From the IMG/VR virus record IMGVR_UViG_2695420763_000018: a stretch of 27,432 bases of DNA. One strand, written 5' to 3'. Source of the stretch: a virus. Taxonomy: Duplodnaviria > Heunggongvirae > Uroviricota > Caudoviricetes. Both the position numbers and the translations under genes were made by a program. Positions 4,964 through 25,901 of the stretch are shown one piece after another; position 1 is the first letter of the stretch; every line of letters begins with the position of its first letter. The notes beneath the pieces were generated by a model. The model searched no databases, was not told the DNA's origin, and saw only the letters and a program-made list of their open reading frames with translations.

Positions 4964-6439
4964 TTAGGAGCGCCAAAAAAAACCTGAAAACAATATAATA
5001 ACAGGATAAATTTCAAGGCGACCAAGAATCATAGCTATGCACATTAAACATTTTGCAATGTCATTAAGCACTCCGAATGACGATGCAGTAGCCCCAAAAC
5101 CTAATCCCATATTATTAATACATGCAGCCACTGTTGCAAATGATGTAAGAAAATCATATCCCATACCATTTAACACCAGTATAAAAAACACCGTGAAGAG
5201 AGTATAAAGAAAAAAGAAACTCCATACAGACCTCATTACACGATCTGTAACTATCTTCCCTCCTACATTTACACTCAACAACGCTCTGGGATGAGAAAGC
5301 TGATTTATCTCGTGTTTGCTTTGTTTGAAAAGTATAAGAAATCGAAGTGACTTAATTCCACCACAAGTTGAACCTATACATCCCCCAAAGAAACTTGACA
5401 ACAGCAAAAACACTATCGTGTGCGTGGGCCAACTTGCATAATCCTGCGTAGCTAAACCATTATCAGTGAGCATGGAGCTGGCAAGAAAAAACGAATGAAT
5501 AAAACTTCCATGCAAGTCATACATACCTATATGCCAGACCTGGAAAGAGGTAACAATGATCACCCCTAAGGCTATTAACAGAAAGAAACGAAGTTCAATA
5601 TCTCTGATTAAAGGTTTTATCGTTTTCCTGCTAATAACAATATACCAAAGAGTGAAGTTGAAAGCCGATAGCAGGGAAAAAGAACCAGCCACCAGCTCAA
5701 CCAAATAGTTATTAAAATATCCGATACTCTCGCTATGAGTTGAGAAACCACCAAGCGAAACTGTGGAAATCCCGTGACAAATAGCATCAAACAAAGGCAT
5801 TCCTGCAAGTCTATAACAGACAATACAAGCAATACCTAATAAAGAATAAGTTATCCACAGTGTCCGTGACGTATCGGCCAGGCGGGGAGTGAGTTTGTCA
5901 TCCTTAAATGGCCCCGGCATTTCTGACTGATAAAGCTTTGCACCACCAATACCCAATAATGGCAATACAGCAACCGCCAGAACAATAACTCCTAAACCAC
6001 CTATAAAATTTAACTGTGACCGATAGTACAAATATGCCCGAGGTAATGAACTAACATCATCAATTACAGTTGCTCCTGTTGTTGTTATTCCAGAAACCCC
6101 TTCAAACAGAGCATCAATGAACGTTAAATTAAGTTCTGAGTCAATCCATAAAGGGAATGCACTAATAACAGAAAACAAAATCCAAAACATTACAATTATA
6201 ATAAACCCATCACGGGTACGTAATTGAATGCCAGATTTCTTAGTTGTATACCACGCTCCGCCACCAATGCAAAAAAATATAACGAAAGTTATAAAGAAAA
6301 CGAACAGGCTTTTTTCTTTATAAAACAATGCTACAACCATTGGTGGCAACATTGAAAGACTATAGAGCCAAACCAGGAACCCACACATATGAGTAACAAC
6401 TCTTACATGAGATGTATTCATATCTAAATATTCTTTCAA
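4964..6439 (-). CDS. trkG: Trk-system K+ uptake protein TrkG
   Basis: 491-aa polytopic membrane protein with repeated GxGxxG-like pore segments, recognised as TrkG of Rac; gene and flanks are visibly AT-rich relative to the surrounding phage genes. Confidence 0.9.
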   Translation of the reverse strand: MKEYLDMNTSHVRVVTHMCGFLVWLYSLSMLPPMVVALFYKEKSLFVFFITFVIFFCIGGGAWYTTKKSGIQLRTRDGFIIIVMFWILFSVISAFPLWIDSELNLTFIDALFEGVSGITTTGATVIDDVSSLPRAYLYYRSQLNFIGGLGVIVLAVAVLPLLGIGGAKLYQSEMPGPFKDDKLTPRLADTSRTLWITYSLLGIACIVCYRLAGMPLFDAICHGISTVSLGGFSTHSESIGYFNNYLVELVAGSFSLLSAFNFTLWYIVISRKTIKPLIRDIELRFFLLIALGVIIVTSFQVWHIGMYDLHGSFIHSFFLASSMLTDNGLATQDYASWPTHTIVFLLLSSFFGGCIGSTCGGIKSLRFLILFKQSKHEINQLSHPRALLSVNVGGKIVTDRVMRSVWSFFFLYTLFTVFFILVLNGMGYDFLTSFATVAACINNMGLGFGATASSFGVLNDIAKCLMCIAMILGRLEIYPVIILFSGFFWRS

Positions 6440-8958: not shown

Positions 8959-9534
8959 TTTTCCTCACATATGTCATATAGTAAAGGATTATATATACCG
9001 TTGTTTTGGACGCTCAAACAGCGAATCAGATCAAATAAAACGCACATTTGTTAACATTTACACAAAGTCTGCGTGGGATATTCTGAAAGAATATCCATAA
9101 TGTGGAGAGAATCTATTGAAGTGCATGGTGCCGGGTGCCTCCCGGTGAACAAAATGTTCGTGATACCTGTCGGCGACAGAAAAGGTTAATGGTATCACCC
9201 CACCGCACAGGGGGATTCACCATGCAGGAGTTTTCTTAGCAAACTCACTGCGCGCCCGGCAACTCCCAACCACATAAAATGCGGAGTTTGTGGCATTTGT
9301 GCATATAACTCGCAGGAATTATCTTAAAAAACTGATGTCGATCCGGATTAAAAAGAAGCAGGTCATCATCAGATGACTGGAAAAAAGGAAAACAAAAAAT
9401 ACTCATCATACAGTTTTGATTGCAGGGATGAGCCTGCTATGCACAATATAAGCAAGATAAAAATATGCAGGCATATTATTTCGGATTTTGTTATTAACAC
9501 AACCTTTTTAATAATCATTTGGCATACAATAAAC

Positions 9535-12794: not shown

Positions 12795-12827
12795 TTGACA
12801 TAACCCTCAAAAAGGTGCATTTATAAT
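12795..12827 (+). promoter_or_regulatory. candidate promoter of the DUF1971 moron (consensus hexamers, non-canonical spacing)
   Basis: TTGACA at 12795-12800 and TATAAT at 12822-12827, both exact consensus but 21 bp apart instead of 17. Confidence 0.3.
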
Positions 12828-12849
12828 GCATGTTTTATGGGAGGTGGTT

Positions 12850-13191
12850 ATGACACACAAGAGAATTCCTAAAGACTGGGTAATCAAACGCTCAACTCCG
12901 TTCTTCACAAAAGAGAACGTACCTTCAGCGTTATTAACACATCATAATACAGCAGCAGGTGTTTTTGGACAGTTAAGCGTGATGGAAGGTACTGTAACAT
13001 ATTATGGTTTTGCTGATGAGAATGCTACTGAACCGGAGATAAAAGTAGTCATTAATGCTGGCGCTTTTGCAACAAGCCCACCACAATACTGGCACCGTAT
13101 TGAACTAAGCGATGATGCTCAGTTTAATATTAACTTTTGGGTAGCTCCAGACTTCTCAGGCGAAAAAGTCTATACCGCAAAAAAAAAATAG
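12850..13191 (+). CDS. DUF1971 (YeaR/TehB-N-terminal-like) protein
   Basis: Pattern RSTPF...GV.GQLSVMEGTVTYYGFADE..EPE.......AG.FA..PP..WH.IE..DD..FNI.F.VAPDF matches my recollection of E. coli YeaR; ATG 12850 preceded by GGAGGTGG. Confidence 0.65.
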   Translation: MTHKRIPKDWVIKRSTPFFTKENVPSALLTHHNTAAGVFGQLSVMEGTVTYYGFADENATEPEIKVVINAGAFATSPPQYWHRIELSDDAQFNINFWVAPDFSGEKVYTAKKK

Positions 13192-13273
13192 CCACGCTAT
13201 AAATATCTTATTAACTAGTCCCGGCGTGGTTCTTTCCCCGCTGGGTCTTTTACTCAGATTAGTAGTCTACGAA

Positions 13274-13399
13274 TCACAGCCTCCGTCTGCCAGTTCGGAT
13301 TCGTACCTCGCAGAGGTCTTTCCTCGTTACCAGTGCCGTCACTATGACGGTTAAACAGATGACGATCAGGGCGATTAACATCGCCTTTTGCTGCTTCAT
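13274..13399 (-). CDS. hok: Hok-family type I toxin homologue with divergent, shortened C-terminus (41 codons); possibly decayed
   Basis: Product MKQQKAMLIALIVICLTVIVTALVTRKDLCEVRIRTG matches the RelF/HokD N-terminal 37 residues as I recall them, then reads RRRL-stop where canonical Hok continues QTEVAVF...; AGGAG SD upstream; a 19-codon upstream ORF ends on ATGA at the hok start (mok-like coupling). Confidence 0.6.
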   Translation of the reverse strand: MKQQKAMLIALIVICLTVIVTALVTRKDLCEVRIRTGRRRL

Positions 13400-13921
13400 A
13401 GCCTGCTTCTCCTTGACCTTTCGGTCCGTAAGAGGCTAATCTCTATGTGTCGCATAGATATGGCCTCAGATTAATGTTAAACGTCTTGCAGGACGCGTAA
13501 TGTTAACTGGGGCTTTTCTCTATCTACCTTTGGTGTTCATGCCCGAGGCAGATAGCCTCAAGCACCCACAGCAATTCTAACTATCCAATACATCACTGCC
13601 AACACTTTAAACTCTTACCCTTTAAAACAAGAACAAAATTCAACCAATCAGCATTGGGCGTATACTCATATCCTAGAGAAAACAACTCTTTCTGTACTAT
13701 TTATATCCATATGATTTATAAGCATTTGCCACTTGCCATAGCCGCACAATGACAGTTTGCCATTTGATGTCAATAGATAAAAATGATCGTTTTCAATGAG
13801 TTACATACTTGCAAGGCGTTGCACATCAGGCCCGATTACGTCAGTATCAAAAGATTACAGATGGTGCATTACTGCCACCTCGCCTTAATGTTCCAGAACT
13901 CTCCAACTTGAGGAATTTTCA

Positions 13922-14695
13922 ATGACATCCTTTCAATTATCTTTGATTTCTCGTGAAATTGACGGCGAAATAATACATTTACGTGCCAAAGATGGTTACA
14001 TAAACGCCACATCAATGTGTAGAACTGCGGGCAAACTGCTCTCTGATTACACTAGACTCAAAACTACTCAAGAGTTTTTTGACGAATTATCACGCGATAT
14101 GGGAATTCCCATATCGGAGTTAATTCAATCATTTAAAGGTGGAAGACCTGAAAACCAAGGGACATGGGTGCATCCTGACATCGCTATTAATCTAGCGCAG
14201 TGGCTATCGCCCAAATTTGCAGTCCAGGTTTCAAGATGGGTTCGTGAATGGATGTCAGGGGAAAGAACTACAGCAGAAATGCCTGTACATTTAAAACGGT
14301 ACATGGTTAATCGTAGTAGAATTCCTCACACGCACTTTTCTATTCTTAATGAACTGACATTCAACTTGGTTGCACCTCTTGAACAAGCAGGGTACACACT
14401 CCCAGAAAAAATGGTTCCTGACATTTCACAAGGAAGAGTATTTTCACAATGGTTAAGAGATAATAGAAACGTAGAACCCAAAACATTCCCTACCTATGAC
14501 CATGAATATCCCGATGGTCGCGTATACCCTGCAAGGCTGTACCCAAATGAATATTTAGCAGATTTCAAAGAACATTTTAACAATATTTGGTTGCCGCAAT
14601 ATGCCCCGAAATACTTCGCTGACCGGGACAAAAAGGCTCTCGCCTTGATTGAAAAAATTATGCTACCTAACCTCGATGGCAATGAACAGTTCTAA
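13922..14695 (+). CDS. KilA-N domain protein with uncharacterised C-terminal domain
   Basis: N-terminal segment LISREIDGEIIHLRAKDGYINATSMCRTAGKLLSDY...PDIAINLAQWL is KilA-N-like; GAGGAA SD 7 nt upstream; transcribed opposite to its neighbours. Confidence 0.7.
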   Translation: MTSFQLSLISREIDGEIIHLRAKDGYINATSMCRTAGKLLSDYTRLKTTQEFFDELSRDMGIPISELIQSFKGGRPENQGTWVHPDIAINLAQWLSPKFAVQVSRWVREWMSGERTTAEMPVHLKRYMVNRSRIPHTHFSILNELTFNLVAPLEQAGYTLPEKMVPDISQGRVFSQWLRDNRNVEPKTFPTYDHEYPDGRVYPARLYPNEYLADFKEHFNNIWLPQYAPKYFADRDKKALALIEKIMLPNLDGNEQF

Positions 14696-14703
14696 ATGAT
14701 TAG

Positions 14704-14734
14704 CCAGCCCCATAAGGGCTGGTTATTTAGTATT
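14704..14734 (+). terminator. intrinsic terminator after the KilA-N gene
   Basis: Stem ccagccc (14704-14710), loop cataa, stem gggctgg (14716-14722), followed by ttatttagtatt. Confidence 0.65.
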
Positions 14735-14735
14735 A

Positions 14736-14819
14736 TCAACCCCAGCGGCAAATCGAATACACCACCAGCGCCACCGCCATCGCAATTCCTACCGTTGTGA
14801 ATGCTTCAGGCCAGGTCAT
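14736..14819 (-). CDS. candidate 27-aa single-TM peptide translationally coupled to the upstream 167-aa gene
   Basis: ATG at 14819 overlaps the TGA of the 167-aa gene (ATGA); product MTWPEAFTTVGIAMAVALVVYSICRWG; ends right at the terminator hairpin. Confidence 0.3.
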   Translation of the reverse strand: MTWPEAFTTVGIAMAVALVVYSICRWG

Positions 14820-15319
14820 CGTAAAACATCCTCCACGCTTATAAGTCCGCTTCGCTCCAGGTAGTCCATCACTTTATCCGGCAATTTGCAGCCCGGTTTC
14901 GCTTTCTTCAGTTGACTAACCAATTGTTTAACCAGCATTGTCAATTCGCGAACTTGTTTCCCGGGCTCCCCTTTGCCCTGAAGCAGGGCAGCGCGGCAAG
15001 CGTTCCATCCCTCAGCATATGTTTCAGTTACACCATCGAGATGGCATGTAAGCAAATCCATTTCTTCCGGCACTACGGGCGCTGGAAAAACGGCATAGGG
15101 TGGCGTCCATTTTGGCGCTTTATCTCCAGCCGAACGCTGATACCAGTCATCCGGTTTGTATTCATAAAAATCACCAACTGGCTCTGCTTCCAGCGATGCC
15201 AGAGCAATTTTGAATAATTCGCCCTCTACCCGTGCCATCCCTGAATTGGGGTGGCATTTCTCAATCGCTATTTTTAATTTAGCTTCTTCGATTAATTGCT
15301 TTTTGGTTAATTCAGTCAT
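14816..15319 (-). CDS. hypothetical protein (167 aa)
   Basis: Uninterrupted ORF with ATG start in the nin-equivalent region; no family recognised. Confidence 0.5.
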   Translation of the reverse strand: MTELTKKQLIEEAKLKIAIEKCHPNSGMARVEGELFKIALASLEAEPVGDFYEYKPDDWYQRSAGDKAPKWTPPYAVFPAPVVPEEMDLLTCHLDGVTETYAEGWNACRAALLQGKGEPGKQVRELTMLVKQLVSQLKKAKPGCKLPDKVMDYLERSGLISVEDVLR

Positions 15320-19802: not shown

Positions 19803-19975
19803 TAGTTCCAGCATACCACCCACCCCGCCCCACAGAACGCCGGGCAATACTTCGAGTTACCAGGCAGTGATAAGGGGTTAAGTAGCCAGCCCGAGGCGTA
19901 TGAACATGACGGCGGGATTCAAATTTTGCAGTGCAGCAGTTAGTTCCGCCACCCGGCGTTAAGGGGAGAGATAAG

Positions 19976-20110
19976 ATGGTGCATTACGAAGTAGTTCAGT
20001 ATTTGATGGATTGTTGCGGTATCACTTACAACCAGGCTGTGCAGGCTTTACGCAGCAACGACTGGGATCTCTGGCAGGCAGAAGTCGCTATACGTAGCAA
20101 CAAGATGTGA
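19976..20110 (+). CDS. ydaG: small protein YdaG (44 aa)
   Basis: ATG 19976 preceded by GGGGAGAG; product MVHYEVVQYLMDCCGITYNQAVQALRSNDWDLWQAEVAIRSNKM; matches the length and position of K-12 ydaG. Not in the supplied ORF track (under 60 aa). Confidence 0.6.
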   Translation: MVHYEVVQYLMDCCGITYNQAVQALRSNDWDLWQAEVAIRSNKM

Positions 20111-25504: not shown

Positions 25505-25699
25505 ATGAGATATGACAATGTTAAACCATGTCCATTTTGTGGTTGTCCATCAGTAACGGTGAAAGCCATTTCAGGATATTACCGAGCGAAGTGTAACGGA
25601 TGCGAATCCCGAACCGGTTATGGTGGAAGTGAAAAAGAAGCACTCGAAAGATGGAATAAACGAACCACTGGAAATAATAATGGAGGTATTCATGTATAA
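25505..25699 (+). CDS. ralR: RalR (Lar), restriction alleviation protein and type I TA toxin
   Basis: 64 aa from MRYDNVKPCPFCGCPSVTVKAISGYYRAKCNGCES...; zinc-ribbon-like Cys pairs. Confidence 0.85.
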   Translation: MRYDNVKPCPFCGCPSVTVKAISGYYRAKCNGCESRTGYGGSEKEALERWNKRTTGNNNGGIHV

Positions 25700-25901
25700 A
25701 ATTACCGCCACTATTGAAAAGGAAGGTGGCACTCCTACTAACTGGACAAGATATTCAAAATCTAAACTAACGAAATCAGAATGCGAAAAAATGCTCTCAG
25801 GTAAAAAAGAAGCAGGCGTTTCCAGAGAGCAGAAAGTAAAACTGATAAATTTTAATTGCGAGAAACTTCAGTCCTCGAGAATTGCATTGTATTCAAATTA
25901 A
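25692..25901 (+). CDS. ydaC: YdaC
   Basis: 69 aa from MYKITATIEKEGG...; GGAGGT SD; its ATG overlaps the ralR stop region. Confidence 0.75.
   Translation: MYKITATIEKEGGTPTNWTRYSKSKLTKSECEKMLSGKKEAGVSREQKVKLINFNCEKLQSSRIALYSN

Follow-up and report, generated by a model that had tools for sequence, protein, structure and literature searches.

The plus-strand gene at 13922-14695 of the window, the whole stretch of 27,432 nucleotides (IMG/VR record IMGVR_UViG_2695420763_000018, class Caudoviricetes), is probably a BstA-type single-protein abortive-infection defence gene that would be expressed in the lysogen from a self-contained moron. Its 257-aa product (WP_000200358.1), labelled 'KilA-N domain-containing protein' in RefSeq, joins a KilA-N DNA-binding domain to a C-terminal half that is, as judged by sequence and profile comparison, the BstA C-terminal domain (BstA_C). 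Homology and position are the basis for predicting that the gene is expressed in the lysogen, gives a defence phenotype, blocks replication and has self-immunity, whereas the domain assignments, the N-domain fold, the cassette boundaries, the equivalence of position with known moron slots and the purifying selection on the gene were observed directly. Three other functions, namely an anti-repressor, a host-killing toxin and a replication accessory factor, have less support than BstA-type defence.

An inserted cassette in a Rac-like prophage

A Rac-like E. coli prophage with ttcA as its integration site makes up the window, and intR, xisR, recET, kilR, sieB, racR, ydaS/T/U/V, the lysis genes, trkG and terminase were identified in it. 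The genes flanking the KilA-N + BstA_C coding sequence on both sides lie on the minus strand, with hok/sok as the left neighbour of the cassette and, on the right, a 167-aa ORF and the ydaW/ydaV/ydaU replication genes. The features of the cassette and its immediate surroundings are as follows.

13274-13567, minus strand: hok/sok type I toxin-antitoxin locus, directly adjoining the cassette on its left
13274-13399, minus strand: hok ORF
13397-13567, minus strand: sok (Rfam match, 101 bits)
13602-13574, minus strand: promoter-like site of the hok/sok locus
13580-14739, plus strand: whole moron cassette of upstream region, gene and terminator (1,160 bp)
13580-13849, plus strand: upstream module, common to the slot of E. 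coli A30 with other cargo
13850-13921, plus strand: cargo-specific 5' leader, with a Shine-Dalgarno sequence (GAGGA) at 13910-13914, read from the sequence
13893-13955, unstranded: putative aba-like zone, set by analogy with its placement in BTP1 (the 29 bp before the gene and the gene's first 34 bp; PMC8585504)
13922-14695, plus strand: coding sequence of the KilA-N + BstA_C protein (257 aa; WP_000200358.1)
13961-14257, plus strand: KilA-N DNA-binding domain (residues 14-112)
14276-14674, plus strand: BstA-like C-terminal domain, the presumed effector (residues ~119-251)
14697-14739, plus strand: intrinsic terminator, made up of a hairpin (14697-14729) and a U-rich tail after it

The first-pass annotation had described a KilA-N protein with its own Shine-Dalgarno sequence and a clean terminator, carried as a self-contained moron oriented against its surroundings, and each of these points was borne out. 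Pfam KilA-N matches residues 14-112 at E=4.3e-27, the GAGGA motif lies 7 nt 5' of the ATG, and the hairpin after the stop codon has a predicted energy of -18.6 kcal/mol (z=-4.45), with none of 200 shuffled sequences equally stable. In two related prophages (L085 and L086) only ~33 bp separate the equivalents of 13236-13579 and 14740-14947, and 13580-14739 is therefore an insertion. The GC content of the cassette is 0.40, compared with 0.45 for the whole window and 0.50 for the replication genes on its right. The sole sigma-70-like site in the cassette is TTGCCA-16-AAAAAT at 13757-13784 (9 of 12 positions matching), which in a promoter scan was weak and no better than chance.

Together with its 342-bp upstream region, the cassette is found as one unit at ≥99% identity in 117 of 5,426 complete E. 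coli genomes, so that about 2% of these genomes have it, and around 20 more have the cI-linked allele described below. E. coli A30 (L089) matches the window at 13236-13849 and at 14740-14819 with a different 437-bp insert between, and the leader at 13850-13921 is missing from this version of the slot. This comparison delimits the gene-specific part of the cassette to 13850-14739, and since the upstream 270 bp are shared while the cargo is another, the slot is a cargo hot spot. The A30 insert (L089 3271-3707, corresponding to window 13850-14739) holds a 51-aa Cys-rich, zinc-ribbon-like ORF beginning MEKTVNKKICSKCGEPCEILF..., with its own terminator.

The gene is intact and under strong purifying selection. 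Comparison with an allele of 86% protein identity gave pN 0.088 and pS 0.735, the synonymous sites being saturated. The possibility that it is a degraded remnant was ruled out, as all family-invariant residues are kept and pN/pS is ~0.1 or lower. Two phage records, vB_EcoS-673R7 and vB_EcoS-666R9, carry an identical protein; they originate from work on the phages that clinical isolates of E. coli contain, and a reading of them as plaque-forming phages showing lytic tolerance of the gene was rejected in favour of treating them as prophage sequences.

Several further features of the window were recorded in passing. A DUF1971 / TehB-like protein of 121 aa is encoded at 12826-13191 on the plus strand, a second plus-strand gene amid minus-strand genes, and is probably another moron. 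On the minus strand, the RalA antitoxin sRNA (25698-25876; Rfam, 225 bits) adjoins ralR, the sRNA STnc100 (9069-9255; Rfam, 87 bits) lies in the lysis-proximal region, and the potassium transporter gene trkG (4964-6439) is a prophage gene with lysis genes on one side and packaging genes on the other, an arrangement also seen in K-12 Rac.

A BstA C-terminal domain behind a canonical KilA-N domain

The C-terminal half of the protein, said in the first-pass annotation to match nothing recognisable, is related to BstA by several measures. The PADLOC BstA model (PDLC02356) matches residues 119-238 at E=3.2e-21, and the full-length protein hits PHROG 6287, named 'BstA abortive infection system, replication inhibitor', at E=2.7e-89 with 300 bits, on a scale on which BstA(BTP1) scores 501 bits and the BstA(Ec)-like protein 444 bits. 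By BLASTP, residues 125-251 align with residues 164-302 of BstA(BTP1) at 32% identity over 142 columns (E=3e-16), and profile-profile alignment of the window subfamily with BstA-proper by hhalign gave a probability of 98% (E=1.4e-13), confined to the C-domain. Precomputed Pfam assignments place PF04383 and PF26567 on all close homologues and PF26567 alone on the BstA-proper relatives, which UniRef names 'BstA-like C-terminal domain-containing protein'. Sixteen alignment columns are invariant in both subfamilies, corresponding to R126, N130, P135, F139, S140, E144, D167, I168, S169, G171, W177, H194, Y207, P208, F215 and Y231 of the window protein. The predicted C-domain is compact and confident (pLDDT 91). 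A search of NCBIfam with the window protein matched no family, and PHROG 129, 'transcriptional regulator', matched the N-domain.

BstA proteins are constitutively expressed, prophage-encoded abortive-infection proteins that localise to the DNA of incoming phages and stop it from replicating, and three have been tested, namely BstA(BTP1) of the Salmonella phage BTP1, BstA(Ec) of E. coli NCTC10963 and BstA(Kp) of Klebsiella Kp52.145 (PMC8585504). The window gene shares with these a single-gene, prophage-borne organisation with its own terminator, membership of PHROG 6287 and a two-domain architecture of a KilA-N or KilA-N-like N-terminal domain and a PF26567 C-terminal domain. The differences lie mainly in the N-terminal half, which is a canonical Pfam KilA-N domain in the window protein but has no Pfam match in BstA of the tested type, and no alignment between the two kinds of N-domain was obtained by BLASTP or hhalign. 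The window protein is also shorter (257 aa against 299-307 aa), its C-domain is 23-32% identical to those of the tested proteins, and it matches the PADLOC BstA model with 74 bits over positions 148-272 of 292 (43%), whereas the tested proteins match over the full length with 351-412 bits. The other E. coli homologues fetched from Table S1 of PMC8585504 are likewise of the ~300-aa type. Because the N-domains do not align, the PADLOC match is partial and the tested type is ~300 aa long, the window protein represents a distinct subfamily, and at 43% coverage of the model this subfamily may be missed by routine defence-system scans.

This subfamily is probably the one that Owen et al. (2021) noted as a small group of homologues similar in the C-terminal region only and left untested (PMC8585504), judging from hit lengths and taxa. 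The last rows of Table S1 of that study list C-terminal-only homologues, for example from Hafnia alvei, with hits of ~350-440 bp (PMC8585504). A tblastn search of BstA(BTP1) against the window gene covers residues 125-251, a length like that of those rows, and a Hafnia relative of the window protein (L007) is 81% identical to it. The literature searched gave no phenotype data for the canonical-KilA-N + BstA_C subfamily.

Moron slots and the search for a self-immunity element

The window copy has hok/sok on one side and the end of the early replication operon on the other, ~4.5 kb from racR and not directly downstream of the repressor, whereas the BstA(BTP1) gene follows cI. A repressor-adjacent location is frequent in the BstA family, though not universal. 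Two BstA-proper homologues from the list of Owen et al., in E. coli O103:H2 12009 (L090) and NCTC9022 (L091), are also not downstream of cI, and are neighboured by integrase, DEAD-box/SNF2 helicase, VRR-NUC and DNA methyltransferase or polymerase genes.

The canonical-KilA-N subfamily also occurs in the repressor-adjacent position. In E. coli D5, and likewise in phage PhiR5_2, cI is immediately followed by the allele WP_000191544, with 86% protein and 78% DNA identity to the window gene, and N comes after it; an Enterobacter relative (L005) is directly preceded by a Peptidase_S24 repressor. The cI (WP_001274755) and cro (WP_000437875) products of E. coli D5 are identical to those preceding a BstA(Ec)-like gene in E. 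coli O178:H19, the product of which is 42% identical to BstA(BTP1); BstA(Ec) itself is 41.7% identical to BstA(BTP1) (PMC8585504). Given the shared cI and cro, WP_000191544 and the BstA(Ec)-like gene are alternative occupants of one slot behind a single immunity region. The same cI-N slot contains bstA in BTP1 and rexAB in lambda, and this equivalence of position speaks for an equivalent function. In the window the gene has moved to another moron slot, where the sequence upstream differs, so that one presumed defence gene is seen in two moron slots of lambdoid prophages. RexAB and other cI-N morons are likewise prophage-encoded abortive-infection functions expressed in the lysogen, but RexAB is a two-protein membrane-depolarising system with no kinship to the window protein in sequence or architecture.

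In BTP1, prophage self-immunity depends on aba, a 63-bp DNA element spanning the start codon of bstA, which when present on a replicating element suppresses BstA in a homologue-specific manner; it has been mapped for this one BstA only, and those of BstA(Ec) and BstA(Kp) have never been mapped (PMC8585504). Transferring its placement to the window gene gives the putative zone at 13893-13955. No terminal direct repeats of at least 6 nt framing the start codon, comparable to the CCCGCC pair of BTP1, were found, in a test without power given that ~60% of shuffled sequences share a 6-mer. Aligned upstream regions of relatives with 60-86% identity revealed no conservation except for the 3' end of cI in the cI-linked copies. 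The first 12 codons differ from the 86% allele with pN 0.23, compared with 0.09 for the rest of the gene; this higher 5' divergence is compatible with a homologue-specific element without being evidence for one. A search of the window for a second copy of the 5' zone returned only a 14-mer, AGATGGTGCATTAC, present exactly at 13858-13871 in the 5' leader and at 19974-19987, where it lies at the translation start of a 45-aa 'phage protein' (MVHYEVVQ...) close to racR. With a chance probability of ~0.03, this shared 14-mer is probably a coincidence.

By analogy with the tested BstA proteins, defence would proceed as follows. In the lysogen, transcription of the cassette would run counter to the early operon and be independent of it, with the cassette's own terminator as insulation. 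The KilA-N domain would bind DNA and bring the protein to the replicating DNA of an incoming phage, a role modelled on that of BstA, whereupon the BstA_C domain may block phage DNA replication, as its homology suggests, such that an infected cell would die before any progeny is released, which would protect the population. During replication of the prophage itself, a cognate putative aba, probably located at the gene's 5' end or close to it, would suppress the protein.

Alternative functions and the family-wide picture

At 90% identity the subfamily comprises 2,652 clusters (E≤1e-3), and 52-60% identity is maintained across Proteobacteria, Verrucomicrobiota, Planctomycetota, Nitrospirota, Armatimonadota and CPR genomes. 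All-against-all clustering of neighbours at 80 loci from many phyla identified no conserved partner gene; the largest neighbour clusters reflected Stenotrophomonas synteny only, and the Pfam families of the immediate neighbours were heterogeneous. Because neighbour conservation is absent across these 80 loci, the window protein appears to act as a single gene. In about nine Stenotrophomonas loci (L023, L027, L028, L030, L033, L037, L038, L040 and L052) the gene adjoins aceK, its chromosomal surroundings are conserved, and none of its immediate neighbours is an obvious prophage gene. The high conservation across phyla is unusual for a defence gene, and the Stenotrophomonas synteny could indicate another role.

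A profile of the C-domain alone recovered 923 clusters at 50% identity. BstA_C is the C-terminal domain in 124 representatives, where it follows KilA-N (24), Bro-N (12), Rha (12), AntA (8) and, more rarely, YdaS/Cro-type HTH (3), P22_AR_N (1) or ORF6N (1) domains, the remainder having no N-terminal Pfam match. Iyer, Koonin and Aravind (2002), as cited in PMC8585504, described a domain-shuffling network of modular phage proteins. In the KilA-N / Bro-N / Rha / AntA network the same interchangeable N-terminal DNA-binding modules are combined with C-terminal modules that vary, and each of the four also occurs in front of BstA_C. Many of its members are anti-repressors or regulators rather than defence proteins, and the classical C-terminal partners are ANT, KilA-C and Bro-C, none of which is the C-domain of the window protein.

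These heads raise the possibility that the window gene encodes an anti-repressor or transcription regulator of this class, switching a resident or competing phage between lysogeny and lytic growth. Such a function would fit the occurrence of BstA_C behind domains typical of phage anti-repressors and regulators among the 124 representatives, the PHROG 129 match on the N-domain and the high conservation of the subfamily across phyla, but it appears unlikely on the evidence from the C-domain and from gene position. ANT (PF03374), KilA-C and Bro-C are absent, a Pfam scan at E≤1 having returned only KilA-N and a sub-threshold RHH_3, and the best match to an antirepressor C-domain fold in BFVD (E=0.24, probability 0.30) gives no indication that the C-domain is a known anti-repressor domain. 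Abortive infection has been demonstrated for relatives that share this C-domain (PMC8585504), and the window gene faces the opposite way to lytic transcription, from which it is insulated. Further, lysogens express the cI operon, of which the 86% allele is part, and an anti-repressor of the resident phage at that location would therefore destroy lysogeny. Of the two kinds of function offered by the first-pass annotation, a defence or exclusion effector was thus rightly listed, in view of the BstA_C homology, and the anti-repressor was left without support.

The KilA-N domain is named after kilA of P1, which is lethal when expressed. A phage-independent host-killing or exclusion toxin acting in the manner of P1 KilA, serving prophage maintenance or competition through toxic expression, would accord with that origin and with the adjacent hok/sok toxin-antitoxin locus. 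It is nevertheless very unlikely, as the gene persists intact at ≥99% identity in 117 genomes with no adjacent antitoxin-like partner, and the BstA proteins studied are expressed constitutively without killing uninfected cells (PMC8585504).

Two unusual fusions were observed among the BstA_C proteins. P0265 (1,230 aa) joins a PriCT_2 + DUF3987 primase-helicase to a complete KilA-N + BstA_C, and P0318 combines Rha and BstA_C with a DUF559/REase-like endonuclease; these may hint at a link of BstA_C to replication or nuclease functions, or may be gene-calling artefacts. The least probable alternative, a DNA-binding accessory factor for the replication or recombination of mobile elements with no part in defence, draws on P0265 and on the window gene abutting the replication module, but P0265 is a single fusion that could be an assembly or gene-calling artefact, and the cassette is dispensable, being missing from related prophages, and is oriented opposite to the replication operon.

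Abortive-infection defence of the BstA type is therefore retained as the preferred reading of the window gene. If confirmed, it would extend BstA-type defence to a subfamily annotated merely as 'KilA-N domain-containing protein' or 'DNA-binding protein'. The combination of a textbook DNA-binding fold and a compact C-domain would be convenient for studying how BstA stops replication and how aba DNA silences BstA. The distribution of heads fits a constant effector with exchangeable DNA-binding heads, and a possible, though rather doubtful, generalisation is that BstA_C is a general anti-replication effector carried on interchangeable heads, with the head setting the cognate aba and perhaps the phage DNA that is attacked. 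If this is true, defence by abortive infection would be the function of many entries named 'antirepressor', 'Rha regulator' or 'KilA-N domain protein', and the canonical-KilA-N subfamily, as the best conserved and most widespread form, would be the most tractable model for the mechanism of BstA.
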